Shown here: positions 1,707 through 48,183 of the stretch, one piece after another
Layout of the letters: each line of letters begins with the position of its first letter
How positions within the stretch are numbered: the first letter of the stretch is position 1
Origin: Azolla caroliniana
Lineage: Eukaryota; Plantae; Polypodiophyta
Assembly (NCBI GenBank): GCA_043228905.1
Contig: JBHGNT010000001.1
Coordinates: forward strand, 19,282,001 to 19,346,000
Direction: 5' to 3'
Length of the DNA stretch: 64,000 bases
The notes under the pieces: generated by a model
The model's database searches: none
What the model was told of the DNA's origin: nothing
Seen by the model: only the letters and a program-made list of their open reading frames with translations
Position numbers and translations under genes: made by a program

Positions 1707-1969
1707 TGTCAGGAATAGTACTAAAGCAGAGATGGAATTAGTACTAAGAAGAGTAGTACTATTAGTACTAAGAGGACGGGACTGCGTAAGATTCCCGAGA
1801 GAGAGGAAGTGAGAAGAGGAGAGAGAGAGAAATAGGATGATGACAGCAGCTCTTATATTATATGAAAGATAAGTACAAATCGGCTAAGAGGCTTAAGACT
1901 GGTATTGAACCAATTTGGTTCAAAACAATGCCTTGTGCCTCCTTTTATAGTGTTTTTAGGAATAATCCT

Positions 1970-2002
1970 GAAGCTTCTAGAATGTTCCAGAGAGATCTGG
2001 AA
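1970..2002. promoter_or_regulatory. Heat-shock-element array in B LTR (second copy at 12640-12672)
   Basis: GAAgcTTCtaGAAtgTTCcaGAGagATCtgGAA: alternating nGAAn units with 5-bp periodicity, about 20 bp upstream of the minus-strand TATAAAA (1943-1949). Confidence 0.7.
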
Positions 2003-2063
2003 TATACATCAATTTTCTATGATAAAGCATAAATGAAAATAATATCCTACAAAATACAATTCA

Positions 2064-2120
2064 TAGTCTAATGGTAAGAGCTCGACCCATGTAGCATAAG
2101 GTCATGGGTTCGAGTCTTGC
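2064..2120 (+). promoter_or_regulatory. tRNA-like Pol III internal promoter module in B LTR (second copy at 12734-12790)
   Basis: A box TAGTCTAATGG (2064-2074) and B box GGTTCGAGTC (2107-2116) at tRNA spacing; no intact acceptor stem. Confidence 0.7.
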
Positions 2121-2143
2121 CATATCATGACACTATCTCCCCC

Positions 2144-4408
2144 TTAAAGACGACGAGTGGAACGAGTCGGCGCTAATTGCGGACCGGGTTTGTCCGGATA
2201 CTTTCGGTGGAAATCAGCAAGAAGATCTTGTGCATTGGCAACATGCTCGACGGGTTCCGAAGTACGTTCGCTTGGACTATAACCGAGCCAATCGACCAAG
2301 TAATAAAGTTTGTTGCGAACAAGTTTGGAATCGAGGATGGCAGCAACTTCATACTCCGGGCCGGCGTCCAACTCCAGCGGGGGCGGCGGTGGTGTCACAT
2401 GATCGGGAATGGTGTTTGCTTTATAAGGCTCAAGAAGAGAACAATGGAAAACCGGATGTATCTGAAGCTGCGGAGGGAGATCAAGGCGGAAGGTGGCATC
2501 ATTAATCTTCCCCGTAATACGGAAAGGACCGAGTCGTCGATAATCCAACTTGTCGTACGGTCGAGTAGTCTTGATGTGACGACGTAAGAGCCATACTCGA
2601 TCTGCGATGGCAAAAGAGGAGGGAATCCGATGACGATCTGCATAAGTCTTCTGTATGTGTTGAGCATGACGAAGGTGAGTAGAGAGATCCATCTGGATCT
2701 TGCGTAGCCTCTCCAAATGATCCTCGGCACGAGGGTTGGTAGGTAGCTCCGGAGTGTCGATCACCGACCAGCAAGGATGGAAACCGGTATAAGCGAAAAA
2801 TGGGGAGACCCGAGTTGAGGAGTGAATAGCATTATTATACGCAAACTCCGCAAAGTGGAGAATCTCGGCCCAATCGTCCTGTTGATAACTCAGGAAACAC
2901 TGGAGATATTGCTCCAGCGTTTGGTTTGTTCGTTCCACCTGTTCGTCGGTCTAAGGATGGTAGCCGGAGGAGAGGTTGCAGGAGACCTTGAGCATCTTGA
3001 AGAGATGTTGCCAAAATTTGGAGACAAATTGCAGACCTCGGTCACTGATAATACTGTCTGGGAGGCCATGATGCCGAAATACCTCACACATAACAAGAGC
3101 GATGGTTTCCTCGCTAGTGATGGCTTTAGTACATGGCAGAAAATGTGCCATCTTCGTATATCGATCGACGACGGTTAGGATAGCATCGAACCCCTTCGAG
3201 ACCGGCAGATCTGTGATAAAATGAAGACAAATAGGCTGCCATGGCTTACTTGGAATCGGTAAAGGTTCTAACAAGCCATATGGATGGTGTCGTGGCATCT
3301 TTGCTCGACAGCAAGCATCACAGGTCCGAACGTAGTCGTCAACAAAACGGCACATGAGGGGCCACCAAAAAGATCGCTGCACTAGCTCTAACGTCTTAGT
3401 ACTACCGAAATGTCCCGCCATATGGGTGTCGTGACAATGTTGGACGATTTGAAGGTGACAGGAGCAATCAGGGACATATACGCGCTTTTTAAAGAATAAC
3501 AAACCATCATGATATTCGAATTGTCGGTAGTCAATACTTGGTTGTTGAGACTGAGAACAGGATGCCCGAGAAGTATCAATGTGCGCCAGGATGTCTTGAA
3601 CAAAACTATCCGTCTTCAAGGTTGCACGTATGTCATCAGTAATCTGTGAATCCATCAGGGTGTGAAAAATCCGCATCGTGTGCAATTGTGTTGGTCCCAA
3701 GATTACTTGCTTTTGATTATCAAATGTTGCGTCACCAGGACGAGGTGCAAGATATGAACGCCGTGATAGTGCATCTGCTTTTCCTTGCTGCTTCCCCGGT
3801 CGATATGTGATTTTGAAGTCAAAACGCGTGAGGAATTGCGCCCACCGAGCTTGTCGTCGATTTAGTACGCGAGCATTCTGAAAATAAGCAAGATTTTTAT
3901 GATCGCTAAAGACAATGACCTGATGTGGAGAGCCCTCTAAGAAATGCCACCATTGTACAAATGAATCCACGATGGCTAATAACTCCTTGTCATGTATTTC
4001 GTAGTTGATTTCTGCGACATCGAATTTGCACGAATGGAAAGCCACCGGATGCAACTCTTCTTTCTCGCCTTGTTGAGAAAGGATGCTACCAAGGGCGAAA
4101 TATGATGCGTCGGCCTCCATGATGAATGGTTTGCTTGTATCCACATGAGCTAGAATCGGTGCTGATGTAAAGGTTTTCTTAAGATGCCGAAAAGCCATAT
4201 CTGCTTCTATGGACCAAAGAAATGCTTGGCCCTTCTTCGTAAGTTGTGTGAGAGGTAAAATAATCTTCGAGTAATCCTGTATAAACTTACGGTAGAAGTT
4301 AGCAAAACCTAGAAAACATTGTACATCTCGTACCGACCGTGGAATTTGCCACTGTAGTACAGTTTGGATTTTAGCTGGATCCATGGTGATGCCCTTTGAG
4401 GAGATGAC
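2144..4408 (-). pseudogene. Element B pol 3' part: RT end, RNase H, integrase, chromodomain
   Basis: NYEIHDKELLAIV (RH), H-H-C-C zinc finger, IISDRG core, and C-terminal EYEVAAILDSK...YYLVDWLGY chromodomain. One internal stop at about 2951. Confidence 0.93.
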
Positions 4409-5079
4409 TGTTGGGATTTCGGTCCCTCCGGATGGGATGTCCGGAGATGAATGACGGCAAGCCCGGAGGCTGTTACGGAACCGGGTGATGAAGAGTACCC
4501 GGCATGAAGCCGGATGAAGAGTACCCGGCTACGGATCCGGATGATGAAGACCCCGGTTACGGAGCCGGATGCTGAAGACCCCGGTTACGGAGCCAGATGA
4601 CGTATGTACCCGGAGAGAGATCCGGATGCGGGGACATATTTGTGAATATGTTTGCCAAGGGCCCTTGAGGCTATATTTGTAAATAGCCCGAAAGTCATAT
4701 GTGTATAAATATGACTTAGGGCAAACAGTTTGTTGTTGTTGCTCATTTTCTGTTTTCACTGAGAGAGAGAGTGAAGAGAGCAGCAGAGAGGGAGAGAGAG
4801 AGAGAGAAAGACGAAGAGGTCGTTGCCTCTGTGTATTACCGCCGCCTGTGGCAAAGACAGTGAGCTCAAGGTTGTTGCCTTGTAGCTTCACCATTGTACA
4901 TCTCTGTGTATAGTGATAGTTGGAGTTTGAGGACTCCCGTGGTTTTTCCCTATTTAGGGTTTTCCACGTAAAACATCCTGTATACTCTTCTCTCTATTGT
5001 CTTCGTGCATTTCTTGTATTTCCCGTTTTCTGTGAATCGATCCTATTCCTCGGTTGTGGCCGAGCTCTGTGGTTCAACA
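4409..5079 (+). repeat. 5' LTR of element E (U3 has short CCGG-rich tandem repeats; TATA at about 4704)
   Basis: Direct repeat of 9166-9836; contains GATGAAGAGTACCCGGC x2 and TGAAGACCCCGGTTACGGAGCC x2. Confidence 0.97.
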
Positions 5080-5109
5080 AGTGGTATCAGAGCGACGGTA
5101 ACACAGAAA

Positions 5110-8100
5110 ATGGAAGGCGGCGGTAGTGGGCCTCCGGGCATGATGGTGTTGAACTCACAGAACTACGCCGACTGGAAGATAAAGATGGAAGACCTTCTCA
5201 TCGTCCGAGACCTGTATGAACCGATCGACAATGCCGAGATACCCAAGGGGGTAATAGAGTCGGAGTGGAAGCTCCTGAACCGGAAAGCCGTAGCGACGAT
5301 CCGGCAATATGTCGATGTAAGCGTCCTACAACATGTGGCGAACGACACCAACGCATATGAGATGTGGAAGAAGCTGTCGGGCCTCTACGAGAGGAAGAAT
5401 GCGTTGAACCGGACCTCCCTGATGAGGAAGATAGTGAACCTCAAGTACCGGGACGACGAGAATATGGTGGAACACGTGAGCACGTTCATGGGATTCGTGA
5501 ACCAGCTTGCGGCGATCAAGTTCCCGTTGGAGGATGCAATGCAAGCCATCATTCTGATGTGTACATTGCCGGAAAGCTGGGAGAACTTGGTGGTGACTCT
5601 CAGCACCTCCTGCACCGAAGATAACTTGTCTCTACAAACGGTAAAGACAAGCATTTTGAACGAAGAAGCGCGTCGGAGAGATAAAGAACCGGTTTCCGAT
5701 CCGAAGATGCTGCTTACCGAATCGGATCGGGGAAGACAATGGAACCGGAGTCCGCAAAGACGGGAGAAGTCGGGGACCCGGTCGCAGTCAAGAGGAAGGC
5801 CCACATGCTTCCACTGTGGGAAGCCGGGGCACTTCCGGAAGAATTGTCGGCATTACCGAAAGGACAACGGAGCCGTCGACACCGATTCGAAGAAGTCACC
5901 GGAGAGAAACGGTGCATACCGAGGAGCCACGGACCGGAGAGGTCCGGATCGGCGAGGGCAGGACCGGAAAGGAACGACGGCACTCGCGGCAAGTGAAGAA
6001 GAGATAATGCTCATTACCGAAGAAAGGGAGCTGAACCTTGCCGGTGAAGAGATGACCTGGGTGGTCGATTCCGGAGCGTCGTTCCACCTGACCCCGGAGA
6101 AGAAATACTTCTCATCCTACACAGCCGGTGAGCATGGCTATGTCCGGATGGGAAATGAAGGTACATGCCGGATTGCCGGCATAGGAGACGTGTGGCTGAT
6201 GACATCAACCGGATACAAGATGCTGCTGAAGGATGTTCGACACGTTTCGGAGGTTCGATTGAACCTGATTTCGGCCGGGAGGCTAGACGATGAAGGCTAC
6301 ACGGGTAGCATCCGCAACGGTGTCATGAAGTTCAGCAAAGGGAGCCTGATAGTGGCTCGGGCCCGGAAGGTCAACACACTGTACCTGATGAATTCCCGGC
6401 TATGTCCGGAGGAGCTGAACGTGGCAGCTGACCCTGCTGGTGAGCTATGGCACAAGAGACTGTGCCACATGAGCGAGAAGGGGATGAAGAGGCTTGCAGA
6501 AGACAACCTTATTCCAGTGAAGCATGTGCACCTGGAGAAGTGCACCGATTGCCTGGCCGGTAAGCAGAACCGAACCTCCTTCCACTCAAGGCCACCGACG
6601 AGACGTAGTGTACCATTGGAGTTGGTGCACACTGATGTGTGTCAGGTAGAAACGAAGTCACATGGCGGAGCCCAATATTTCGTAACATTCATAGATGACC
6701 ATAGCCGGAAGCTGTGGACGGCACCGTTGAAGACAAAGGACCAAGTATTGTCCGTCTTCAAAGAACTCCACGCGAGAGTGGAAAGGGAATCCGGCAAGAA
6801 GCTGAAAGCGATAAGAGCGGATAACGGAGGGGAATACCGGGGGCAGTTCGCGGAGTACTGTCGCTCGAAGGGAATCCGGCTCGAGTTTACTGTGCCGAAG
6901 ACGCCGGAACTGAACGGGCTGGCCGAGAGGATGAACCGGACCATAATGGAGAGGGTCCGGAGTATGCTGGCGCATGCGAAATTACCCAAGGGGTTTTGGG
7001 CTGAGGCAATGTCGACGGCGACATACGTGATAAACAGATCACCCTCAGCACCTTTGGACGGAGACACGCCGCAGAGAGTGTGGTCCGGTAGGGAAGTATC
7101 CTACCGGCATCTGAAGGTGTTCGGGTGTCTCGCATACGTGCATGTGGCAAAGGAACGGAGAGGAAAGCTAGATCCAAAGACCCGGCCATGCATATTCCTC
7201 GGTTACGGCGATGACGAGTTCGGCTACCGAGTATGGGACCCGGTCGACAAGAAGATATTCAGGAGTCGAGATATCATCTTCATGGAGGACAAGACACTCG
7301 CCGACTGGGAGTCGGAGAAGAAGATGAAGAGCTCCAAGTCGACCGGTGAGGATCAACTCTACGAGGAGCAGTCCCGACCGGCAAGGGACCGGTTAGCACT
7401 CGAGGATCCGGCCGAAGACGGTGAAGAAACAGAACCGGCCGAGGAAGATGAAACTGATACCGGAACCGGCCCCGATCCCGAAATGGATTCGGATGAAGAG
7501 GAAACGGAGGAGCCGGTTACCGAAGCTCCGGAACGGAGATATCCTCTAAGAGAGAGAAGGGCCCCCCGGAGATTTCCGGAACCAGAGCACGTGCTGATAA
7601 CCGACGAGGGGGAGCCGGAGAGTTTTGAAGAAGCAAAGCTTGACACCCATAGCCGCAGGTGGTTAAGTGCCATGCAGGAGGAGATGGATTCCCTGCATGA
7701 GAACCACACATATGAACTTGTGGAGTTGCCGAAAGGAAAGCGGGCACTTCGAAACAAGTGGGTGTTCAAGCTGAAACCGGGAGATGCCGGAAACTCCCCG
7801 AGATACAAAGCCAGGATCGTGGTGAAGGGGTTCCAGCAGAAGAAGGGCGTCGACTTCGACGAGATATTTGCCCCGGTAGTGAAGATGACCTCCATCCGGA
7901 CCTCGAGGTAGAACAGATGGACGTGAAGACGGCATTCCTTCACGGTGACCTCGAAGAAGAGATCTACATGCAGCAACCGGAAGGATTCGAGAAGAAAGGG
8001 AAGGAGCACCTGGTATGCCGGTTGAAGAAGAGCCTTTACGGACTGAAGCAGGCTCCCCGGCAATGGTATCAGAAGTTCGACTCCTTCATGAACGACGAAG

Positions 8101-9155
8101 GGTACCACAAAACGCAGTCCGATCATTGCGTGTTTGTGAAGAAGTTCGGAGGAGGAGACTTCCTAATACTCCTCCTGTACGTGGACGACATGTTGATCGT
8201 CAGACGGGACCAGGTCAAGATACAGATGCTGAAGAAAGCACTTCACCGAACCTTCTCAATGAAGGACCTGGGTCCGGCGAGGCAAATACTAGGGATGCAC
8301 ATCATCCGGGACCGGAAGAAGAAGCAGTTGTGGCTGTCACAGGAGAAGTACGTGACAAAGGTGCTTCAACGGTTCAACATGTCGGAAGCAAGACCGGTCG
8401 GATCGACCCTCCCGGTAAACTGCAAGTTATCCGGCAAGCAAAGTCCCAAGACAAAGGTTGAAAAGGAGGATATGATGAAGATACCATATGCCTCTGCCGT
8501 AGGAAGCTTGATGTACGCAATGGTGTGTACAAGACCAGACATAGGATATGCAGTCGGAGTGGTGAGCCGGTACATGAGCAATCCCGGCAAAGAGCACTGG
8601 AACGCGGTCAAGTGGATACTCCGATACCTGAAGGGCACGGCAAACGTGTGCCTCCGATTCGGCTCCGGTAAGCCCGAACTTGATGGATTTACCGATTCGG
8701 ACATGTCGGCTGATGTGGATACCAGCCGGTCTACATCAGGGTACGTAATGACATATGCAGGGGGAGCCGTTTCGTGGCAGTCGAGGTTGCAGAAGACGGT
8801 TGCGTTGTCAACCACGGAGGCGGAGTACATGGCGGCTGTTGAAGCCGGCAAGGAAGTAATATGGATGAAGGACTTCATTAGAGAGCTCGGTATCCGGCAG
8901 GAGGAGTACCGACTCTACTGCGATAGTCAGAGTGCCATCCACCTTGCGAAGAACGCGGCCTACCATTCCCGGACGAAACACATCCAGCGTAGATACCACT
9001 GGATCCGGGAAAGGATAGAAGACAAGGAGTTCGTGCTGACGAAGATCCACACGGACGAGAACGGGTCGGATATGCTGACCAAGGTGCTCACACCCGACAA
9101 GCTGGAAGCATGCCGGAAGAGGATCGGGTTGGAGAGACATCCCATGCCGAAGTGA
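5110..9155 (+). pseudogene. Element E gag-pol (gag, CCHC knuckle, PR, IN, RT, RNase H) with a single frameshift at about 7902
   Basis: CFHCGKPGHFRKNC, WVVDSGAS, LWHKRLCH, DNGGEY, MDVKTAFLHG, YVDDML, RTKHI. The frame switches between ORFs 5005..7911 and 7758..9155. Confidence 0.95.
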
Positions 9156-9165
9156 AGGGGGAGTT

Positions 9166-9836
9166 TGTTGGGATTTCGGTCCCTCCGGATGGGATGTCCG
9201 GAGATGAATGACGGCAAGCCCGGAGGCTGTTACGGAACCGGGTGATGAAGAGTACCCGGCATGAAGCCGGATGAAGAGTACCCGGCTACGGATCCGGATG
9301 ATGAAGACCCCGGTTACGGAGCCGGATGCTGAAGACCCCGGTTACGGAGCCAGATGACGTATGTACCCGGAGAGAGATCCGGATGCGGGGACATATTTGT
9401 GAATATGTTTGCCAAGGGCCCTTGAGGCTATATTTGTAAATAGCCCGAAAGTCATATGTGTATAAATATGACTTAGGGCAAATAGTTTGTTGTTGTTGCT
9501 CATTTTCTGTTTTCACTGAGAGAGAGAGTGAAGAGAGCAGCAGAGAGGGAGAGAGAGAGAGAGAAAGACGAAGAGGTCGTTGCCTCTGTGTATTACCGCT
9601 GCCTGTGGCGAAGACAGTGAGCTCAAGGTTGTTGCCTTGTAGCTTCACCATTGTACATCTCTGTGTATAGTGATAGTTGGAGTTTGAGGACTCCCGTGGT
9701 TTTTCCCTATTTAGGGTTTTCCACGTAAAACATCCTGTATACTCTTCTCTCTATTGTCTTCGTGCATTTCTTGTATTTCCCGTTTTCTGTGAATCGATCC
9801 TATTCCTCGGTTGTGGCCGAGCTCTGTGGTTCAACA
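9166..9836 (+). repeat. 3' LTR of element E
   Basis: Direct repeat of 4409-5079, preceded by the PPT. Confidence 0.97.
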
Positions 9837-9841
9837 ATGAC

Positions 9842-11146
9842 GTAGCCTAGAAATTCCACTTGCTTGCAGTCAAAGCTACATTTTTCTAGCTTGGCATAAA
9901 GACCATTCTCGCGGAGTCGCTTTAGTACTAATAGTACATGAGAATCGTGCTCTTCCTGGGTCTTCGAATAAATCTACAGATCATCCAGATAAATGATCAA
10001 ACAGATATCCAAGAGGTCTCTGAATATATCATTTGCCATGTGTTGGAAGACTGCGGGTGCATTGGTTAGGCCAAACGGCATAACAGTATACTCGAAATGC
10101 CCATACCGCGTGCGAAAGGCGGTCTTCCACTCATCTCCTGGTCGGATCCGCACGAGATTATACGCTCCTCGTAGGTCGATTTTAGTAAAAAACTTGGCAC
10201 CATTAACTCGCTCTAAAAGACTTGATATAAGAGGAAGTGCATACCTATTCCGGATGGTGACTTTATTCAATCCATGGTAATCAACGACAAGACGAAGTGA
10301 GCCATCTTTCTTCTTGACAAAGAAGATGGGTGCACCGGCCGGAGATTTCGAATGGCAGATGAACCTGCTTGCCAAGTTCTCCTCTATGTAGGCTCGAAGG
10401 ACTTCTAACTCGGTGGGTGACAAGTTGTAAATTGGTCCCCATGGTGGCTCGGTTCCTAGTTGTAAATTGATGGGACAGTCATAGGGACGGTGATGAGGAA
10501 GGGTACCGGCTTTTACCTTTTCAAATACATCGGCATAAGGATGATATTTTGCTGGAAGTTGTACTGAGGAGTCCTTCTTAATAGTGCTGGAAGGATGTAC
10601 TGATATTGCAAATAGGAACATTGCCTCCTTGGGTCCTTCGCGTAGTTGATGGAGTGAAATGGTCAAAACTTGGTGAGTTGATTCTTGGGGTGGTCGATAT
10701 CAGACTTCTCTTGTTCTCCAATCTATGGCTGGAATATGTAATTCAAACCAAGGTAATCCTAGGACAATGGGATGCTCTGGACTACTAATTATATTAAATG
10801 ATATTACACACACAAAACTACCTAGGACAACTTGAATGGGTTCTGATTCTTCTATAATATTCCCGGAAGCAATGGGACGACCATCAATGACAACTATAGA
10901 TGCGGGACAAGGAAGTTTTCTTAAGGATATCTGAGAAGCTTGGGCAAAATTTCGATCCATGAAACAGGAATTAGCTCCGGAATCTAAAAGTGCTAGGACG
11001 GGTATTGGGGGAGTACTTTTAGTACTAACAATGACTTGGGCTAGGAACACATTGCTAACTTGCTTGGAAGGAATGGAACCACTAATGGGCTGTACAGATC
11101 TAGGGCTGCTGTCCAACCAAACAACTCCTATTTTGGCTGGACTCAA
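9842..11146 (-). pseudogene. Element B pol 5' part: aspartic protease and reverse transcriptase
   Basis: ALLDSGANSCF (PR); [38 protein letters not shown] (RT); internal stops. Confidence 0.93.
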
Positions 11147-12300
11147 TTGGTTAACTCTTCATCTAATTGACTAAGGATTTCAAATTTATTTGAGATACTT
11201 GGGCTATTAGTACTATGAATACTATCAAACATTCTATTAGTACTATTAATACTATCAGACACTCCTAAGGGAAGAATTGACTCAGGTTTAGTACAGGCTA
11301 CAATTTGATTTACCTGTCTTCTTGGCCTATGGGGACAATTGATTGCGATATGCCCTGGTCCACCGCAATAAAGACATAATCGATTTGCACGTCGTCGTTG
11401 CTTTTCTTCTTCCGATAACGGGCCGCGTCGACGCATGGTATCGATCTCCATCGGTGTCGAAGTATTTGCTTGAGGAATGTCTCGTGCAAATGGTCTAGCC
11501 GCGACTGCGGCGTAAGTGGGCTCCGGCCTAGCACGTGGTATCTGTAATTGACGTTCCGAACGCCGTTCGAAGAGGCGGTTGTCACATCGGACCGCTCGAC
11601 TGATTGCCTCCGTAAGAGACTTTGGTTCTTCGGGGAAGGTTAGAAGTAGATCTTTGACATCATTTCGCAGGCCATAGCGAAATTGCTCCATTAGTGGTTG
11701 ATCATCCCAGGGTATGTCGGAAGCGGGTAGGCGGAAATCCGCCGCATAGGCAGAGGCTGGACGATCGCCTTGACGCAATCGCCGGATCTTGTTGATCGCC
11801 GTCCTGATGCTATCGGTGTCTCCAAATCAAGCTTTGAACTCACTAATAAAATCTTCAAAGTTATTAAGCAAGGGCAATTGTTTTTCTAGAAGCGGAGTGA
11901 ACCATGCTAAGGCTGAGCCGCTAAGCAACGTGCCTATTAAGCCGACTCGGGATGCATCAGTGGGGTATTGGGAAGGATGCATTTGGAGGACTAATCGTAC
12001 CTGATTAAGGAATCCCCTGAATTGCGATCGCGTTCCATCAAATTTCACAGGAAGTCCAATCTTCGGCTCTTTATGAAATCCTTGGGGACTTGATCCTTGT
12101 TGTTGCAATGCCGCTTCGAGTTGTTGCACCCGTAACGCTAACTCCCCATGTTGTTGCTGCGTTTGTTGTTTTTCTAGAGCGATTTGTTGCAGATCCCTTA
12201 TCAGCCGTTGGTTTTCTTGTTCGAGGGCAACAAACTTTTCTTTTAGGCACTGTAACTTGGAGAAAACGGATTGATATTCTTGGGCGCTAACAGTAGCCAT
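11143..12300 (-). pseudogene. Element B gag (PEG10/sushi-like capsid plus CCHC knuckle)
   Basis: PVKFDGTRSQFRGFLNQ, LLSGSALAWF, PMEID, CLYCGGPGHIAINC; one internal stop at about 11827. Confidence 0.9.
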
Positions 12301-12362
12301 AGTAGGGGGAAAAGGATAGGAGGATGAGGGAGAACGACAAGTAGGCTGGAGGAAAGAGGAAT

Positions 12363-12374
12363 AAATTGGTTCAA
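12363..12374 (-). promoter_or_regulatory. Non-tRNA (self-priming type) PBS of element B: TTGAACCAATTT
   Basis: 2 nt downstream of the 5' LTR, lacks TGG, and is perfectly complementary to minus-strand AAATTGGTTCAA at 12586-12575, which starts about 33 nt downstream of the TATA box. Confidence 0.8.
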
Positions 12375-12376
12375 AC

Positions 12377-12802
12377 TGTCAGGAATAGTACTAAAGCAGA
12401 GATGGAATTAGTACTAAGAAGAGTAGTACTATTAGTACTAAGAGGATGGGACTGCGTAAGATTCCCGAGAGAGAGGAAGTGAGAAGAGGAGAGAGAGAGA
12501 AATAGGATGATGACAGCAGCTCTTATATTATATGAAAGATAAGTACAAATCGGCTAAGAGGCTTAAGACTGGTGTTGAACCAATTTGGTTCAAAACAATG
12601 GCTTGTGCCTCCTTTTATAGTGTTTTTAGGAATAATCCCGAAGCTTCTAGAATGTTCCAGAGAGATCTGGAATATACATCAATTTTCTATGATAAAGCAT
12701 AAATGAAAATAATATCCTACAAAATACAATTCATAGTCTAATGGTAAGAGCTTGACCCATGTAGCATAAGGTCATGGGTTCGAGTCTTGCCATATCATGA
12801 CA
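12377..12802 (-). repeat. 5' LTR of element B
   Basis: Direct repeat of 1707-2132. Confidence 0.96.
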
Positions 12803-15963: not shown

Positions 15964-17003
15964 TGTCGTGAAGATTCGTCACTACGCGCGGATCGTGAGG
16001 CGAAACCGCCGGGGTTCTGGACCGGAAGGATTCAAAGTCAATACAAGCTTTGGCGAGAAAGTACTTAAGATAGATTGGGAAAGAGAGAAGTTGAGATTAA
16101 AAGATTGAGAAAGATTGATTGAAGTTTTATCTTTGGATTTAAGAAACAAGTTACACCATCAATTTGATAACGAATTTCTTCTTCTTAATTTCATAATAAA
16201 AAAAAACCGTGTTTTCTCTCCTCCCCCTTCCTTCTTTTATAGATGCTCTCATGCATATGATGCATGTGAGGGTACAAGACATGCATAAATTGCATGTTTG
16301 CCATTTGGCGCTTATGTATTACATGTGGTGCATGATAACCATGTCACTCATTTTAGCTCTCATGTATAAGAATTTACATGTAAAAGTACAATGATATACT
16401 TTCAACTAAATAGCATGGCTTAATGGTAAGTCAATTGATTCCTAACTTGGAGGTGCAAGGTTCGAATCCTTGCCCTCCTTGTATATGTATATATGTATAT
16501 ATATTTATTTATCTAGTTGCCGGACGCCGGTTCGTCGGATGCCGTCGCTAAATACCGATGCCGCCGTCACCGGATTGCCGTCAGATGTCGCCGATTCACC
16601 GGCTCCATTGTCGGTCCGGTTTTGGTTGGCCAAAACCCTTTACGAGTAGCTAGCCCACCTCCACTCTTAGTTCAACTTACCTTGAACTCTCTATGCTCCA
16701 CACATAGAAACAAAGATAATATCTTTTGCTCCACCTTATATATTATGAGAGCCGTATTTGTCGTGCCTATGTGGGATATCTCACAATTTTCTCTTTTCCT
16801 TTCACAAACTTTATACCCTCATATCTTGACATTTAGTTGTCCGTTTCTCGTGTAATAAAGTGCATTCGAAAACTCCATCATTTTGTACTTAGATATTAAA
16901 TTTATTTAAAATTTTATCTTCAGAATTATTGTATTATGTGATTTATACTCGACTTTGTACGTTTTATGGGATTTTCACACTATTGCCGAAAATCTTCACG
17001 ACA
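15964..17003 (-). repeat. 3' LTR of element C
   Basis: Direct repeat of 22825-23847 with substitutions and several indels. Confidence 0.95.
16416..16474 (+). promoter_or_regulatory. tRNA-like module in C LTR (second copy at 23283-23340)
   Basis: A box TGGCTTAATGG, D-arm-like hairpin, loop TTCCTAA, variable region GAGGT, and a perfect T arm GCAAGG-TTCGAAT-CCTTGC. Confidence 0.78.
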
Positions 17004-17075
17004 TCCACCCCCACCAAACCGCACGTCCTTCGGTACGTGCCAAGAAGAGAGAAAGTGAGATTTCGGCTACGATGA

Positions 17076-20000
17076 TCAATTAGATTCCTCCATGTCTTCA
17101 TTTTCATCCGCCCTGTTATGTTCATCATCGAGGTAATCGAGGTCAGGATCCTTGTCTTGTCTTTTCTTGAAAATCTTTACTCTTTTTCCCGCAATGGGTA
17201 CGGCTAACCTTGATCTGTCTAATTCCGCAAGGTGGTATGTCGCATTATCGTTGGCACTTGTCACCACATACGGCCCGAACCATCTTCTTGCAAACTTTCT
17301 TGTTGTACTGTGTTGATTGTCAAGGGTGCTGTCGTAAACCAAAACCCAATCCCCTTCTTCAATCTTCTTGGGACGAAGTCGATGCGTGTTGTCGAACCGA
17401 ACTTTGTTCTTTACTCGGGCTGCCTTCATCATCTTTCGTGCTTTTTCTAAATCTTCAGGTCTTCTTTCAAGTTGCCTTATCCGCGCCGCCAATAACTCTT
17501 CTCGGCTCATCTCGTTCTCCCACGGTATCGCTACCCATGAGGCGATCGTCCTTTCGATGGGCATAATCGGCTTTTGTCCATACATAAGCTCCGTCGGCAT
17601 ATACCCTGTCACCGGGCTATGTGTCGTTCTATCGGCCCAGAAGGCATAGGGTAATAGTCGTGGCCAATTCCCGACTCGACCGTTGCATGCCTGTACGATG
17701 GCTTTAACGATAGGTCCATGCCCTCGCTCGATCTTCCCATTTGCTTCTGGATTGTAGGCAGTCGTGAGGGAGAGCTTCACGCCTAGTCTTTCGAAGAGCT
17801 CCGTCGCTTCGTGCACGTCCAACTCCCCTCGGTCGGCCACTATCTTCCCTACACATCCATATCGGCAAACAACATCTTCAAGTAAAAATTTACAAACGGT
17901 TGAAGTCGTCTTATTTGTCAAGGCTCATCCTTCCACTTGATTTGTCAAGTCTTCCCTTGCCAGCGCTAAGTACTTCATTTGTCCCACTCCCATTGGCATC
18001 GAGACCAGATCCACCATCCATTTGAAGTAAATGGTGAGTGGGTATGTCGGCTTTAACTCATCATGATGATGTATATTTGAATATATTTGGCAAGTTTCAC
18101 ATGTGGACACGAAATGGAGTACATCTTTGTACATGCTTGGCCACCAATACTTCTCCTTCAACTTTTCGAACGTCGCCCATGTTCCTCTATGACCTGCCCA
18201 AGCACTCTCCTGGAATTCGGTCATCAGCGTCTCTTGCTCTTCTTTCTTTACCACCACTTGACGTGGTATTCCTGTCCTTCTTTTTGGATGTCGCCAAAGG
18301 AATCCTCCCTTCAAGAAGTATCGGTAAGCTTTCTTTCGGATTCGTAGGGCCTCCTCCTTTGTAAACGAAGCATCTGTCGTCAATGTTCTTAGGAATCTAC
18401 CGATGAGTAACCACTCTCCTTCGTACTCGTTCTCATTGAAGGCGTGGAGGGTTTACGTGTCCTGGTCTTCCGCCGACAATCGAGCCATCTTGAAGAAGTC
18501 GAGGGTGACATCTTCATCTTCTGAAACCATGTTACTTCCATTTGAAAATCTTGCCCTCGACAGCATGTCAGCCATGGCGTTCTTCTTCCCTGCAATGTGA
18601 CGGATCTCTAGGTTTAAAGACTTGATGTAGGCGATCCACCTTAGCATAGCAAGATCTGGGGTCGCACATCCCGAGACCATTCCGACAATTGGGAGACAAT
18701 CTATCTCTATTATCACTTCTAACCCGATCAGGTAATCTTTGTCCGTCTTCACTGCCGACACAATACCCCAAAGTTCCCGCTTGACTTGGGCATATCTTTG
18801 TTGTCGTTTGCTGAGAACCTTTGCTCCGAACCGGACGGCATATCGCGCATTATCTTGACCTTCTTGATTGATGACCCACCCGATTCCGGTTGGGCTAGTA
18901 TCTACGGTCACGTAAATTGGTTTCCCTTCGGCATAGTCGGCCTTCCTTAGTGCCGGAGCTTCAAGAAGCAGTTTCTTTAATCTTCGCATCGCCTCTGTGT
19001 GCTCGTCTCGCCATTCGAACTTTATTCTTTTCTTTAGTAGTCCATATAACGGTTCGGCGACATGAGCGTAGTGAGGAATCCATATATGATAAAACGTGCA
19101 CGCTCCAAGGAACCTTCGAACCTCCGTTTGGTTTTCGCATTCTTCTTTCATGTCTTGGATTGCGTTCACTTTGGATGGCGAGGGCTTCTGGCCGTATGCT
19201 CCACACAAGTGACCTACCACCAAGATCTCTGATTGCCCGAATGCGGATTTTTCTCCCGAAAATGTCAAATTCGCATCTTCGAGCCTTTGAAGCACCTTCT
19301 CGCAATCTTTCATATGATCCGCAACGAACTTTCTACAACCTTCCTTATCTTTCGATTCATCTTTCTCCTCATCCGAACATCCTTTTATCGGAATATCATC
19401 CAAGAATGGCATCGTGATGTCCGGAATGCAATCCTTCAAGACTTTATTCATGGCATTCACCATATGAGCCACCGAGTTCGTTGCGCCTTGGGGTAAGGTA
19501 CACATCCGCACAAGCCCGATCGGAGTCCTCATGGTTGTAATGTCCCGACTGTCGATTGCCAATTGGAATTGGTCATATCCGGAGTAGAGATTGCCAATGG
19601 AGTAGATGGACCGGCCTGCAAACGCTTCGGCAAATTCGTCCACGCTCAGACCGATTTCGGCATTTCGAATTGTCACCTTGTTGATGGGTTGAAGATCTTG
19701 GATGAATCGCAATGATCCATTCTTCTTCGGCACCGTGAACCACCTATTGGAATAAGGAGCATTCGACGGATCTAGAATTCCCATACTCACCTTCTCCTTT
19801 AAGAGCTCGATCAACTTCGGAAGGTGTGCTCTCGGAACGGGTATCGGTTTTAAATTCCAAGGCACATGAGGCACCGTGAAGATCACCATCGGCTCTATAA
19901 CCTTTGGGTCGGCGCATCCGATTTCTCGTGGGAAGCATGCGAAAGCCTTCCCATGTCTCTCAAGCATATCGCGAAACATTCGCTCCTCTTCAGGGAGAAG

Positions 20001-20560
20001 GAAATCCTCCTTTCCAACTCGTAGCTTCCCCTTCGTCTCTTTGGTAAAGACATGACCTATCTTCTTCGGATCTCTGAAGCTTGGATCGTTAGCAACTTCC
20101 TTTATCTTTTGCCAGCTATCTTCCGGTAGCGAAACCGCAACTGGCTTGATCTTCTTATCCACCGTTTTATATTTCGTGTTGATATCAGCTTCCTTCATCG
20201 AGATGCCACGACGGTATTCATCGATGATAGCGTACATGTTGACGGAGTTAACCAAAATCATGCATTGGTTGTGAAGATAGCTCAAGTCCACAACGTCCTC
20301 GATTTCGCCGATGGTGTCGTTAAATGAGGCTTCTTCCATAATATGGGTCACGAACTCTCCTTCTTCTATTATGTTCTCTTCTTTTAGCATCTTCTCGAAT
20401 TCTTGTATCTGGCGCTTGTGCTTCTTGTCGGGTAGTACTAGTTTACATGCGCCACTAGGTGTGACACATGTTGCTTCTCCTTGCTATCCACGCACTCTTC
20501 TTTCTTGTGGGGTCTTGTGATTGCTCGGACTATTTGTGCCCCATGCTTCAATAGTCCGCT
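17076..20560 (-). pseudogene. Element C pol (RT, RNase H, integrase)
   Basis: WFTVPKKNGSLRFIQDLQP, LPQGATNS, PFLDDIPIKG; VTVDTSPTGIG, RYAQVKRELWG; IVADRGE, YNPEANGKIERGH, WFGPY. Contains frameshifts and stops. Confidence 0.92.
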
Positions 20561-22757
20561 CTAAAAATCCGAGGATTCGCCTCCGAGACTATCTCGATTC
20601 CTCATGATTGGCTCGCACCGTTAGGAATTGGACCGATCTTTGGTTGTCAAGACTCTTTATTCGTGTGAAGGCTGCTCCATTATCGAATACTTTGGTCTCC
20701 ATCCGAGATGATGTGATATAAGGTTGCCCTAGGATGACAGGATGCGACGTCGATTCTTGTACGAAGAAGTGTTGATCCATCTCCACATCCCTGATCATGA
20801 CTTTGACATTGGGACAAGCTCCGTACAAATCCTCCGTAGACTTTGTTGCCGCGCGAATCTTCCATCCGTGGTTTGTATTGATTGGCCATCTTCCTTTTTT
20901 GTAGAAGTCGGTTGACATGAGGTTGATCTCCGAGCTGTGGTCGATCAAGGCTACCACGGTCTCTTTCTTCTCCCCGATCTTCACCGGCGTCTCCGTTGTC
21001 GCTCGTGCCCAATGAGGTCGAGTGTAGTGGCTGTCCACCATATCTTCATCGATTTCGTCTCTTGCCATCGTTATGGCATTCGTTTTTGCTTTTTGCGGCT
21101 TCTCTTCTTCCTCATCCGATTGTTGTCTCTTTCTCTTTACAAGGTCCACGATCATGTCATGGAACTCCTTCTTCGTAATGCCAAGCAATTCCCTCAAGGA
21201 CAAAGTTACGTGGCTATCAAGAACTCGTTCTTCGAGAATCTTCTTTAGGTCCGTCGTCTGCTCTATGTCCGACCTTAGCTTATAGGTAGGTATAGTCCTT
21301 GTCCTCCGAGCGGGGTCTTCAACACCAACCTTCACGGGCCGAACCGTTTCTTCAACTCGTATGCTCGGCTCCCCTTTCCGGCTTGATTCTCGTTCCTCCG
21401 TTTGTAAAGGTCGACTCGTCTCCGCATCGTCCTTCTTTTTCGTGTTCCTTGTTTCATGTCTTTTTGATGGCCCTTGCTCTTCTATTCTCTTTCTCTTTTC
21501 TTCGATGAACACCTCGTGGTTCTCACACATCACCTCTGCGAGTATGGTGTTGTCATCCACCGGATCTGACCACCCAGTTATGCTTTTCATGCTTCGGTCC
21601 GCAAGCTCTACCTCGTTCGACGTGACTTTTCCCTTCTTCTCATATTCGAGAACGGAAGTCCAAAACTTTGCTCCCGCTCTAGCAGCTTCAGTCTTGTCTT
21701 TTCCGACTCTTATTCCGGCCGACGCAGCATAGTGCATCGCATCCACATGAGTCGCATCGGCATCCTCCATAGATTTCTTCATTCCTCTTCTTCCGAAATT
21801 CACCCGTAGGGGTCTTCTAGTCTCGCTTGAGCAAATCATGTTGTCCTCTATGTATACGATATTTTGTTGAATCGCCTCTCGAAGGCTTGCACAATCCCTT
21901 CTCATGTGGTCCATGCTGTTGCACCACACGCATCTAAAGGGTTCTTTTCCTTTAGGGCCCCGACGATTCATGTTGGCTAGCGTGATCTTCTCGAACTTCT
22001 TCGCTAGCTCTTCAATGATGTCGTCATCAATCTTCTTTTCTTCCACGTTACTTTGTCTTGGCGGCTCAGCTACTTTCGGTGGTCTTGCTTTCTCCGTGGT
22101 AGTCGGTCCCGTCAAGTCGGTGTCATCAACCCATTGGCGACGCTTGTCGAGCCTATTGCATGCCCGCTTCACCGCTATCCAGTCCGCTACGAGCCCATTT
22201 GCTTGGGTATCATCTTCGAGAAGAGTCCCCAACTCCCGTCTATCCTTTATGTCCACGACCTTCAAGAAGTACAAAGTCTTGTCCTCTTCAAGCAACACTT
22301 GGTCCATATTGGGGAGACGACTAAACATCTGGTCGAATTCGTCGTACACCCTCGAGACGCTCATCTTCTTATTCTTCTTCTCTATCCACTTCATCAGGGC
22401 ATGTCGAGTCATCCTCGTTGAGTCTTCAGTCACGAACTCCGCTAGTATCATTTTCTCGAACTCGGACCATGTTGTCTTACCTTCTTGAAGCTCGATGACG
22501 CGTCTTTGGATGTTGTTGGTGACAACTCTCTTGAAGCTTGCGATTTGACGTGCCTCGGACAAGTCCCTCTGATTCATCTCCCTTCTATATGCATCAAGGA
22601 ACTTCGTAACGTTCCTTCCATCGAATTAGCCCTCGAGCTCTACGACATGATCGACAGCCTTCTCCACGCTCATGTCGTTGTCCCGAGATCTCATCATTTG
22701 CTCGACGATTAGCATCATCCTTTCGAGCTCTCCCGCTTGGTTGCTTGAGGACGCCAT
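20561..22757 (-). pseudogene. Element C gag-protease
   Basis: FDGRNVTKFL, CVWCNSMDHMRRDC knuckle, ALIDHSSEIN protease site, ILGQPY; one internal stop near 22628. Confidence 0.85.
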
Positions 22758-22800
22758 CTCCAAGTATTAATCTCGACTTGATCCTTCCTACCGCCTCTTT

Positions 22801-22816
22801 CACGTCGGGTTCACCA
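22801..22816 (-). promoter_or_regulatory. PBS of element C, TGGTGAACCCGACGTG (tRNA-Trp)
   Basis: Lies 8 nt inside the 5' LTR boundary and matches the recalled plant tRNA-Trp 3' end CACGTCGGGTTCA-CCA. Confidence 0.8.
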
Positions 22817-22824
22817 CTTGCTTA

Positions 22825-23847
22825 TGTCGTGAAGATCCGTCACTACGCGCGGATCGTGAGGCGGAACCGCCGGGGTTCTGGACCGGAAGGATTCAAAGTC
22901 GATACAAGCTTTGGCGAGAAAGTACTTAAGATAGATTGGGAAAGAGAGAAGTTGAGATTAAAAGATTGAGAAAGATTGATTGAAGTTTTATCTTTGGATT
23001 TAAGAAACAAGTTACACCATCAATTTGATAACGAATTTCTTCTTCTTAATTTCATAATAAAAAAAAACTGTGTTTTTTCTCCTCCCCCTTCCTTCTTTTA
23101 TAGATGCTCTCATGCATATGATGCATGTGAGGGTACAAGACATGCATAAATTGCATGTTTGCCATTTGGCGCTTATGTATTACATGTGGTGCATGATGAC
23201 CATGTCACTCATTTTAGCTCTCATGTATAAGAATTTACATGTAAAAGTACAATGATAGAAATATACTTTCAACTAAATAGCATAGCTTAATGGTAAGCTA
23301 ATTGATTCCTAACTTGGAGGTGCAAGGTTCGAATCCTTACTTGCCCTCCTTGTATATGTATATATGTATATATATTTATTTATCTAGTTGCCGGATGTCG
23401 CCGGATGCCGTCGGTTACCGGTGCCGGATTGCCGCCGGATCACCGGCTCCATCGTGGGTCTGGTTTTGGTTGGCCAAAACCCTTTACGAGTAGCTAGCCC
23501 ACCTCCACTCTTAGTTCAAGTTACCTTGAACTCTCTATGCTCCACACATATACACAAAGATAATATCTTTTGCTCCACCTTATATATGATGAGAGTCGTA
23601 TTTGTCGTGCCTATGTGGGATATCTCACAATTTTCTCTTTTCCTTTCACAAACTTTATACCCTCATATCTTGACATTTAGTTGTCCGTTTCTCGTCTAAT
23701 AAAGTGCATTCGAAACCTCCATCATTTTGTACTTAGATATTAAATTTATTTAAAATGTTATCTTCACAATTATTGTATTATGTGATTTATACTCGACTTT
23801 GTACGTTTTATGGGATTTTCACACTATTGCCAAAAATCTTCACGACA
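22825..23847 (-). repeat. 5' LTR of element C
   Basis: Direct repeat of 15964-17003. Confidence 0.95.
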
Positions 23848-35800: not shown

Positions 35801-36208
35801 GAAGACTTCCAAGTCCTGGCAGATGAACAACTGGTGTAGGTCTAGCAACTTGTAGCTCAGCTAGACGATGATAGGCTGGACGCTCAAATCCAGTTTGAGA
35901 GCTACGAGCGGTCCCGGGTTCGGGAAGAAAAAGCACGAGAAGCGACAACGGTTAACCTTAGTGATGAGGAACCGTCGCCGAACGAGGGCCAGGCCGGAAC
36001 CGGTCAACCGGAGACCACTACGACGGAGGCAGCAACGACGGAAACACCGATGTCAGAGCAACAAACGGAGGCGCAGCAGCAGCAACCACAACAACAACAA
36101 CAACAACCAATTCCAGATGAACCATTGGAGACTCTCGAACAAAGCATTCTGGATATTTTGGACGAAGAATAGCAAGGGTCGGATGGTGGATTCGACGTAC
36201 AAGGTACT

Positions 36209-36225
36209 GTCCCACGGGCGTGCCA
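36209..36225 (+). promoter_or_regulatory. tRNA-Arg(UCU) 3'-end-like sequence (a PBS when read on the minus strand) at the PPT position of element A
   Basis: GTCCCACGGGCGTGCCA ends 2 nt before the LTR start TGTTA; no purine tract is present. Confidence 0.7.
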
Positions 36226-36227
36226 TG

Positions 36228-36645
36228 TGTTACCGGCCTGCAAAGGAGTCCAGAGTGTGAAACGAAGGAGTTATTTAATTATTAAGGGATGGTTGTAAGT
36301 AAGCTATTAGTGTGGACGGACGGACCGGAATCGGTATGCCGTTCCGGATCCGGACCGATCCCGAACAGGTGCGGATGGCACCGGAAACCTATTTAAAGGC
36401 CCGGATACAATGTAATGGGCAACGGATAATTAATGAAGCTTAGTGTTTCTATCTCTCTGTGTTAATTGCCGTTCTGCATTCATTGTTATATCTTACGCGT
36501 GTGATTATTAAGGACGATCTTGCTAAGTAACCTAATTAAGTCGGATTAATCGTTGAGCCTAATCCTCTTGCCGTAACATCCCTTTGGTGAAGTGTCTTCC
36601 GTAGACACCCTGTGTTAGGCCATTGTCCGGCCCTAAGAGTTAACA
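36228..36645 (+). repeat. 3' LTR of element A (418 bp)
   Basis: TGTTA...TAACA termini; CTATTTAAAG TATA-like box at about 36389 on +; end identical to 923-941. Confidence 0.85.
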
Positions 36646-37763
36646 GTAAGAAAATGATCACTTTGTCTGGTGTGAGGATAGCTTGATCTCTCGCGGACAA
36701 CCTCCCGAATCGACTTTCGAATGCCGAAAACACATTGAAGACCTTCAGCCCCTTGTCCGGCATTTCCACCCAATCTTCGAATCCCCTCTGCATTGCCTTG
36801 GAAGAGTCCTCGATAGTGAACGTGACCTTCAACGCTTCTTCAAATGCTTCCCACATCGGATTTTGTTGTCCTATACCGTGGATACTCCCTTGAAGCCCGT
36901 CCGTAGCCACCCGATTGAAGGATGTAACTTGCAATCTTCCGATATGCCGCATTGTAGCATTTCCGCCTTGTAGTCCCGCAAATAACGTGACACATCCTTC
37001 CCATTGAATTGCCCGTTCCGTTGCATGAGCCACTCTACTGCCACCGCAATCTCCGACATTGCGCGTTGTTCTTGTAGCATCCGCTCGAACATTGTCATCA
37101 TATTGTTAGCCTCTTGTTGTTTTTCCATCTCCTTACCACCCGTTTTCACATTGGGTTCACCAAATGTGTCGTGCCTTTCGGCGCCGAATCATTGCATGAG
37201 TTGGTGGGAACCGCTGGGGTTTTGGAATAGGATGAGAAAGAATTTGAGATGTTATCAATATGAATAGATTATAGGAAAGAAAGATATGAAACTCTTGAAT
37301 CCCATGAATATAATATATTAATCAACCCTTATATAAAAAAATCAACACCCCCCCCCCCCCCCCCCCCCCACAATGTATATCTTTCTCTCTTCCTTATATA
37401 GTGATGGAAGAGTCTAAGTTTACCACATCCAAGCATCATGCCTTTTCTAACTTTAGTTTTCATGCACACTACATGTGCAGGATTAGCTTTCTATCACATC
37501 TTTTCATTTAACTCGAGTGTGTATGCATGAATAACTTTTTCTATCATGCTTATCTAGAATATTTACATGGGATAAAGTAATATTAAAACTCATAATATGC
37601 TAGTACAATGGTAAGTCTTAAAATTGCTAACATGGAGGTATAGGGTTCAAATCCGCCCTATGCATGTAACATAATTATTGTAGTATTTTCTCTTATTTCT
37701 TTATACTTCGTCAATTGGGTACTCCACACACATTTTATGTATTGTACAAAGTACACTACGACA
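36646..37763 (-). mobile_element. Element D remnant (relative of C): 5' LTR 37167-37763, tRNA-Trp PBS 37147-37162, gag start; truncated where A begins
   Basis: TGTCGT...ACGACA LTR ends. Gag GQFNGKDVSRYL resembles C gag. tRNA-like module at 37601-37654. Confidence 0.8.
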
Positions 37764-38184: not shown

Positions 38185-38987
38185 GTCACACATAGAAAGG
38201 TAAGTTCATGCATATTTTCTAGTATAAAACTTTAGTAAAAGAAAACGCTTTATAGAAAAAAGCTACACATGCACATCTAGTGTGCATGAACACTATAGTT
38301 GATAAAGAAAACGCATGAGGTTAGGAAAACCATGTTAGTGTTGAAAAAATAGATGTCACACATAGAAAGGTAAGTTCACGCATATTTTCTAGGATAAAAC
38401 TTTAGTAAAAGAAAATGCTTTATAGAAAAAAGTTACACATGCACATCTAGTGTGCATGAACACTATAGTTGATAAAGAAAACGCATAAGGTTAGGAAAAC
38501 CATGTTAGAGAAAGCATATAGTCTATAGTTAGAGAAAAAGCATGGATTGTGAAGACTGTCTCATCACTATATAAGGATGGTAGCACAATATAATGAGAGG
38601 AGAGAAAATTATGGATGAAAAATAATTAGGGTTAAAAAATAATGATTAATAAAATAAACTATGCTTCTGAGATTCACAAGTTTTCTATATCTCTATCTTC
38701 CAGTCTATTCTAATTTATTATTAAGGTTTTCAATATTAATAAAATAAATAAACTATACCCGTGGGATTCACGAGGTTTCTATATCCTTCTCTTTCAAACT
38801 AAATTCATATTCTTATCTAAATATTGGTTAATAAAATACATTATACGTGTGGGATTCACAAGTTTCCTATCTCTCTTTCCTATAATCTATTCATAACTAG
38901 ACTCATCTCAAATTCTTCCTCCTAGTCCAAAACCCCAACGGTACCCACCCGACTCACACAAACGATCCTGCACCAAAAGGCATGACA
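38185..38987 (+). repeat. 5'-truncated LTR of the D family in opposite orientation, with a 170-bp tandem duplication
   Basis: 38930-38987 is the reverse complement of the start of 37167-37220; GTCACACATAGAAAGG occurs at 38185 and 38355. Confidence 0.7.
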
Positions 38988-38989
38988 AC

Positions 38990-40650: not shown

Positions 40651-40690
40651 TCCCTAAACTTAATACGGTCGTTACATATGGTACGGATAT

Positions 40691-47730: not shown

Positions 47731-48183
47731 GAATCAAACTGTCAGAACCAAGGATAAAAGATAGAGTGATGGAAGAAGGATATTAGAGAACACGAGAAGA
47801 AAGGAACGAAATACTAAGAGAAGAATGGATGTATAAGATAGAGAAAGAAAGAGAATGGATACAAGATATGTAATGAGAGCTAAAGACTGGTGTTGATTCG
47901 AATTGATTTGAGAATACATGTATGCCCTTATTTATAGGCTCCTATAGAATAGCTTAGAGATTTCTAGAATGTTCTAGAATGTTCTAGACCTAGAATGCTC
48001 TAGGACATTCTAGAACATTTTAGAATAATCTAGAGGTTTTACAATAATCAATGTAATACAAGAAGTAGCTTTTATTGTTTCATATAACAATAAGCTATCT
48101 TAATGGTTGAGGTTTTCAAGTATGGATTACAAGGTTCGAGGTTCAAGTCCGGGTGACGCCATAATGGTCATGTGTTCATGACA
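47011..48183 (-). mobile_element. Element B' (B-related chromovirus) 5' remnant: LTR 47740-48183, self-priming PBS 47726-47737, gag
   Basis: Gag EPKISLPTKFDGSR...YPTDASRVGLVGTLL closely resembles B gag; TGTCA...TGACA LTR ends; HSE array at 47962-48030; tRNA-like module at 48096-48161. Confidence 0.88.

Follow-up and report, generated by a model that had tools for sequence, protein, structure and literature searches.

tRNA-type A-box/B-box modules lie antisense in the U3 of two very different Ty3/gypsy retrotransposon lineages

We analysed a 64-kb stretch of DNA, here called the window, which is a nest of plant LTR retrotransposons. The elements and features that concern us are listed in Table 1. 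Element D (~930-36645, with its 3′ LTR at 36208-36645) is a non-chromovirus Gypsy element with B, C and E nested inside it, and the 45 bases before its 3′ LTR, as located, hold no purine tract. The LTRs of element H (40690-45050, minus strand), a short element, are CT-rich with internal repeats, and of its coding part only gag, RT and protease-like remnants are left. At 38835-38992, the U5 end of a G-type LTR stands as an inverted copy adjoining a Copia element.

Assigned by features alone, element B fits Tcn1 (chromodomain, self-priming, 5-bp TSD, 5.5-9.4 kb size) and element C fits Phygy (4-bp NCGN TSD, 7.7-10 kb, tRNA PBS, no chromodomain). In the parts of Neumann et al. 2019 drawn on here, Tcn1 was found in mosses and club-mosses alone and Phygy is reported from Physcomitrella, and for neither lineage, as listed there, does the text or the supplement table give a tRNA-like LTR module (PMC6317226). 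From this distribution, a moss is the probable host. The self-priming of B and B′ is supported by 12 nt of the PBS region that match a site lying 32-33 nt behind the start of the TATA. The arrangement of this match is the same in B and B′ and its sequences are different; the two LTRs share no alignable stretch longer than 18 nt. Our domain search gave no Chromo match in element C, whose primer binding site we take to be of the tRNA-Trp type. Over 143 residues, the RTs of elements B and C share 29% identity. The original prediction had described B as self-priming with a chromodomain, C as tRNA-primed without one, and their RTs as very different, which the features above support.

Table 1 Positions of the elements, LTRs and modules in the window
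Feature	Position	Strand	Details
Element B	1707-12802	minus	TSD GGAAC; 5663 bp without its nested Copia; gag-pol domains
B 3′ LTR	1707-2132	minus	426 bp; Pol II TATA 1942-1949; heat-shock-element-like repeats ~1970-1987
AT-rich block, B 3′ LTR	2017-2056	plus	80% AT; -40 to -1 of the inferred Pol III start; predicted TFIIIB site
B 3′ LTR module	2064-2116	plus	A box 2064-2075, variable-loop motif 2099-2103, B box 2108-2116; 16/16
B integrase C-terminus and chromodomain	2147-2950	minus	
B 5′ LTR	12377-12802	minus	self-priming site 12575-12586, complementary to PBS region 12363-12374
B 5′ LTR module	12734-12786	plus	points into flank (element D); 16/16
Element C, Phygy-like	15964-23847	minus	7884 bp; 4-bp TSD CCGG; tRNA PBS 22799-22816; gag-pol domains
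C LTRs	15964-17003 (3′), 22825-23847 (5′)	minus	
C 3′ LTR module	16416-16468	plus	16/16; paired T-arm hairpin; TATA 174 bp away, module upstream
C 5′ LTR module	23283-23335	plus	16/16
G 5′ LTR	37165-37763	minus-strand element	truncated Phygy-like element G; gag 32% identical to C
G 5′ LTR module	37601-37653	plus	16/16
B′ 5′ LTR	47740-48183	minus	self-primed; gag ~60% identical to B
B′ module	48096-48149	plus	14/16; one extra D-loop base
G2 solo LTR	62197-62909	minus-strand element	Phygy-like
G2 solo-LTR module	62746-62798	plus	15/16; B box with one decayed base

A strict A-box/B-box pattern, run over both strands of the window, gave seven matches, all on the plus strand with a spacing of 43-44 bp. 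All of them lie within LTRs whose elements are on the minus strand (two in B, two in C and one each in B′, G and G2), antisense to the element and in U3. The boxes quoted by the original prediction at 2064/2107, 12734/12777 and 48096/48140 are present there in the B and B′ LTRs, while the G (37601) and G2 (62746) copies go beyond it. Its central claim, the same tRNA-type architecture antisense in U3 of two very different Ty3/gypsy lineages, is thus borne out by the seven window copies.

Sixteen positions are textbook invariants of tRNAs, and on this set the modules scored 14 (B′), 15 (G2) and 16 (both B, both C, and G). A check by shuffling the LTRs had been set beforehand as a possible refutation. 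In 200 shuffles of each LTR, no module score was reached except that of B′ (p = 0.035), and none of 20 block-shuffled windows contained a score of 16. A chance origin of the box pairs is excluded. The LTRs of A, D and E and the other LTR-bearing stretches of the window scored only 11-13, and element H gave no module, as had been stated for A, E and H. There is also none in the 1 kb adjacent to the inverted U5 copy at 38835-38992. A profile made solely from nine Tcn1 modules ranked the four Phygy copies right behind B and B′, at 20-34 bits, with the next site at 11. A second 15/16 site in the B LTRs (1871/12541) overlaps the self-priming palindrome of B and was set aside as chance.

The modules are 16-34 bp from the LTR end in B and B′, 110 bp in G and G2, and more than 500 bp in C. 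The proposed place at the outer edge of U3 therefore stands for B and B′ and fails for G, G2 and C. The element TATA lies 114-272 bp from the module in 10 of 14 copies, and wherever a TATA was found the module is upstream of it and points away. Counted from the A-box start, the TATA is 114 bp off in B and 159 bp in B′, in agreement with the earlier figure of about 115-160 bp. Between module and TATA, the B-type LTRs contain GAA/TTC arrays that resemble heat-shock elements (1970-1987, 12640-12657 and ~47965-47990, and in the relatives L001, L002 and L026 from outside the window); none of C, G, A or E has the three-unit form.

We compared the parts of the module among 14 family representatives. 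These are related to one another and do not give independent counts; their mean majority fraction was highest in the variable loop (positions 44-48; 0.91), followed by the B box (0.87) and the A box (0.79), and lay at 0.45-0.55 in the acceptor strands, anticodon arm and upstream flank. Tcn1 and Phygy copies had an identity of 0.70-0.81 across the A box, variable loop and B box; for the acceptor and T-stem strands, the anticodon arm and the upstream flank it was 0.25-0.39. In the 14 copies the AT content reached 0.82 at -40 to -1 of the inferred start, compared with 0.59-0.67 further up. Neither the variable loop nor the AT block played a part in picking the copies. The G18-G53 distance was 35-36 nt in 16 of the 17 copies that were numbered (2 of 19 were not numberable). 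A CAA motif near the start was present in only 2 of 14 copies; in the consulted part of PMC13578239, this motif of plant tRNA genes is described as weak outside flowering plants.

Variation within families showed a similar picture. In C-family contigs from four runs, positions varying by at least 10% numbered 0 of 18 in the core and 19 of 55 in the spacer and flank (Fisher p = 0.004); the core set was picked with knowledge of the box-numbering result, and contigs break off at a masked repeat close to the B box. Three A-box positions do vary in this family, all of them degenerate in tRNAs, and the B-box CpG is not variable at 10%. Among 40 listed of 87 B variants, none falls in the boxes, which is a weak sign by itself. 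One contig, from a run that we guess is of RNA, spans the C module at low depth and says nothing on strand or expression. The suggestion that the architecture hints at a function is supported by this pattern of conservation.

The module did not behave like a tRNA. Cloverleaf pairing was found in 53.1% of cells compared with 54.5% in shuffles, 400 of 500 shuffles being as high, and there were no consensus base pairs across the module copies. ARAGORN reported no tRNA in the window, nor in 60 scanned loci of the 84 relatives described below. The Rfam tRNA model found none window-wide and none on B or B′; its best score, on C (12.7 bits, E = 3.2), was not significant. With ARAGORN and Rfam negative and without cloverleaf covariation, we rejected the module as a functional tRNA. 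The B′ LTR had also been said to close like a tRNA 3′ end. The sequence GGGTGACGCCA is present at 48151-48161, but its CCA occupies tRNA positions 71-73 instead of 74-76 and the acceptor stem is unpaired, so this likeness is not upheld.

When folded on the Pol III strand, 4 of 15 copies (B, L001, L006 and the C 3′ LTR) had z < -2, and the C 3′ copy shows D-like and T-arm hairpins. In the B subfamily, a near-perfect inverted repeat (2072-2127) begins where the A box closes, stops shortly after the B box and makes one long hairpin (z -6.5). It also folds on the element strand (z -5), where it sits right behind the PPT in the genomic RNA. The first T4 after the B box was 12 to 1369 nt away, with no common terminator, indicating that the RNA product is not conserved.

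Searching with an integrase alignment, we collected 79 metagenome loci (7 of 64 parts of the metagenome collection) and 5 viral-collection loci, 84 altogether. Seven with less than 85 nt downstream were left out and 77 were scored; L042 ends inside the integrase. Eleven of the 77 scored above all 826 background windows (maximum 15.0), and in each the module was antisense and less than 85 nt from the integrase end. Of these, seven had served to train the profile, L001 and L003 closely resemble such copies, and L029 and L026 were held out. One extra site each in L003 (inside coding sequence) and L017 was set aside as chance. All 11 high scorers come from one assembly series. Among the 15 loci of this series with a readable LTR, worn remains are seen in three more: L045 keeps a strong B block, and L025 and L038 score below background. 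L021 shows none. In Tcn1-like loci from other sources, where the LTR start was located automatically, the module was found in 0 of 31.

On the Phygy side, four loci were found in genome contigs, and none of the three with downstream sequence, which are 55-65% identical to C, has the module; viral contigs gave no Phygy-like loci. The metagenome search was aimed at the Tcn1 side, and the Phygy evidence beyond the window consists of contig variants. The Phygy-like plant retrotransposon contigs L085-L088 are filed under bacterial genome assemblies, probably as contamination.

In an integrase tree of 34 rows, B belongs to a clade (95/92) in which all ten members with a readable LTR carry the module, nine of them complete and L029 with a worn A box. 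Most B-family members might have turned out to be without it, and this was not the case. The worn copies fall in a second clade, whose sister group is without the module. When all Tcn1 carriers were forced into a single clade, the AU test gave p = 0.089. A single origin was thus not rejected, and within Tcn1 one gain followed by losses and two gains are both possible. In a module-less Tcn1 clade (L010, L017, L019, L035, L046), short tandem repeats fill the same part of U3 and may have overwritten the module.

Pol III promoters in LTRs are known from tiny non-coding elements, where the element RNA is their product. Of what has been described, the TRIMp3 group (Cassandra, Ajax and Helenus) comes closest. 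According to the sections of Kojima 2024 used here, Helenus elements have tRNA-derived LTR sequence that is conserved around boxes A and B and is mostly not a functional tRNA, with Pol III activity inferred; only elements below 1000 bp were analysed, and autonomous partners are expected to use Pol II and to share no long LTR sequence (PMC10886601). Like Helenus and TRIMp3, B and C have tRNA-derived boxes in both LTRs. Unlike the non-coding Helenus (311-1263 bp), B and C are 5663 and 7884 bp long, and both have gag-pol and a Pol II TATA. In the Helenus entries that we examined by eye, including Helenus-1_SMo, the boxes are sense and in the 3′ half of the LTR, while ours are antisense in U3. We therefore rejected a membership of Helenus, the elements here being coding and their boxes antisense. 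The Cassandra and Ajax TRIMs, as presented in the same excerpts, likewise have the internal Pol III promoter of a small-RNA gene inside plant or animal LTRs, but theirs is 5S-derived, the elements are non-autonomous, and the promoter drives the element's own RNA (PMC10886601). Since the elements studied here encode proteins, have a Pol II promoter of their own and hold the boxes in reverse, the element-RNA explanation cannot hold and another function is needed. Searches of the open-licence literature turned up no coding LTR element of plants reported to have antisense Pol III boxes in its U3.

What could this function be? The A box, the B box and an upstream AT block are what TFIIIC and TFIIIB read, by the passages of PMC13578239 and PMC3082873 that we draw on. 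These three parts are kept, the RNA product is lost, and the position is averted from the TATA, which we read as a selected Pol III assembly site. From its sequence, the module is very probably a selected, DNA-level Pol III-type (TFIIIC) promoter site rather than a tRNA. By analogy, its main role may be that of a boundary which keeps the LTR Pol II promoter open, a reading that we rank first but hold as plausible rather than probable. TFIIIC would bind the two boxes, with TFIIIB placed on the AT-rich block that separates them from the Pol II enhancer. The outward-pointing orientation would be the tolerated one because a sense copy would drive Pol III across the element's TATA. The bound complex would block the spread of heterochromatin and read-in from the flank, as yeast tDNAs do, and the LTR Pol II promoter would stay open inside nests of silenced transposons. 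Any Pol III RNA would arise as a side product whose length varies.

In yeast, tDNAs and TFIIIC sites serve as barriers, insulators and roadblocks that stop heterochromatin and Pol II read-through, and Pol II promoters close to a tDNA can also be repressed by it (both from the part of PMC4228148 used here). The module resembles the yeast tDNA/ETC sites in being a putative TFIIIC site beside a Pol II promoter and is likely to work similarly, but those are host loci and not LTRs of mobile elements, and their effect is known from yeast (PMC4228148). The chromodomain element RLG1 is located in heterochromatic islands of Physcomitrium, as the consulted section of PMC7466625 has it. Several observations speak against the boundary, among them the repression that tDNAs can exert on Pol II promoters and the scarcity of the CAA motif. 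A complex in the 3′ LTR would obstruct the element's own full-length Pol II transcript, many relatives are without the module (0 of 31 Tcn1-like and 0 of 3 Phygy-like loci), and a barrier would not obviously require a variable-loop motif or a fixed spacing. The four of 15 copies that fold well tell against a purely DNA-level role, an RNA role being possible. The strongly kept variable-loop motif is accounted for by none of the readings, including those that follow.

The main rival is a working Pol III promoter with a meaningful product, which from the 3′ LTR would give either an antisense RNA over the PPT and integrase or a head-on collision with the genomic transcript. The effect would be to limit the element's own copying or to feed small RNAs. 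We think this unlikely, though the orientation suits it, being antisense in 7 of 7 window copies and in 11 of 11 high-scoring loci. The first plus-strand T4 of B comes 1369 nt past the B box, giving a terminator-free run into the integrase. All 8 carriers had fewer A4 runs in the last 1.3 kb of the coding strand than a synonymous-codon null predicts (25 vs 39.1), and 11 elements without the module had 71 vs 73.4. This comparison is confounded by host and kinship and uses frames unchecked for shifts, and the module of L025, one of the eight, is no more than a worn one. Against such a product, C, G and G2 reach a T4 still inside the LTR (22-151 nt on) and five Tcn1 loci within 12-52 nt, so that an antisense integrase RNA is not expected there. 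It is quite improbable that the module is a neutral relic, a tRNA copy or tRNA-derived SINE in U3 of the founders that was inherited or recombined between lineages and has no function. Kojima derives Helenus from a SINE insertion into LTRs and notes tRNA-like pieces in many Repbase LTRs (PMC10886601, in the parts cited), and the decay in one Tcn1 subclade (L021 with none, L025 and L038 below background) would suit a relic. However, the boxes persist while the sequence between and beside them has drifted towards randomness, across families 54-91% identical in integrase. The lack of anything alignable over 18 nt between the B and B′ LTRs and the invariance at 10% of the B-box CpG in the C family also argue against it. 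Of the body and tail that a SINE insertion might have left, a comparison among the module copies showed no common sequence 3′ of the B box (identity 0.25-0.39).

The module might instead be an annealing site for a tRNA in the genomic RNA, where the complement of the D-, variable and T-loops in U3 would let a tRNA bridge the ends for strand transfer. We consider this very unlikely, even if it would account for the antisense orientation and the U3 place, and the conserved positions are those of tRNA loops. A tRNA-Lys3-like sequence has reportedly been claimed in the U3-R of HIV-1. In Ty3, whose PBS is bipartite, the T and D arms of the primer pair with U3, so that an autonomous LTR element has tRNA-complementary sequence there as here; in Ty3, by the portion of PMC5371799 seen, the pairing is with the element's own primer, whereas our modules have no primer match and the self-primed lineage B lacks a tRNA primer. 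B and B′ need no tRNA, being self-primed. The modules of C, G and G2 match the primer read from the C PBS at only 4-8 of 18 positions with a wrong T-stem, on which count we rejected a match to C's own primer. The AT-rich upstream block is also left unexplained by annealing. A mobile landing pad, on which bound Pol III factors draw the integrases of tRNA-gene-targeting elements, seems far-fetched to us. Phygy-in-Tcn1 nesting is common in Physcomitrella, going by the part of PMC6911290 cited here, but among the insertions listed none is upstream of the boxes in the seven window copies, and the nested elements lie in coding regions.

Coming back to the boundary, such a module would be a cis-acting escape from silencing and would bear on the continued expression of elements that land in heterochromatin. 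A wider form of this reading is that, in one group of mosses, at least two deep lineages of autonomous LTR elements captured tRNA promoters independently and kept them backwards in U3 as self-carried insulators. By analogy this is conceivable, and we regard it as rather doubtful. If true, every newly inserted copy would bring in TFIIIC and protect its promoter against silencing, and the genome would be seeded with very many mobile sites for Pol III factors.

In tRNA numbering, the C copies have an anticodon-shaped loop reading CCT and the G copy one reading GCT, and the Tcn1 copies are without such a loop. Outside the boxes and the variable loop, the Tcn1 and Phygy modules are 25-39% alike. 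The blocks that they share are common to many tRNAs, and so convergence and an old exchange both fit as the origin of the modules. The B and C families are abundant, with 2257-4204 and 291-1238 matching contigs per DNA run, respectively, and at this abundance they could also shape host chromatin and the supply of Pol III factors.
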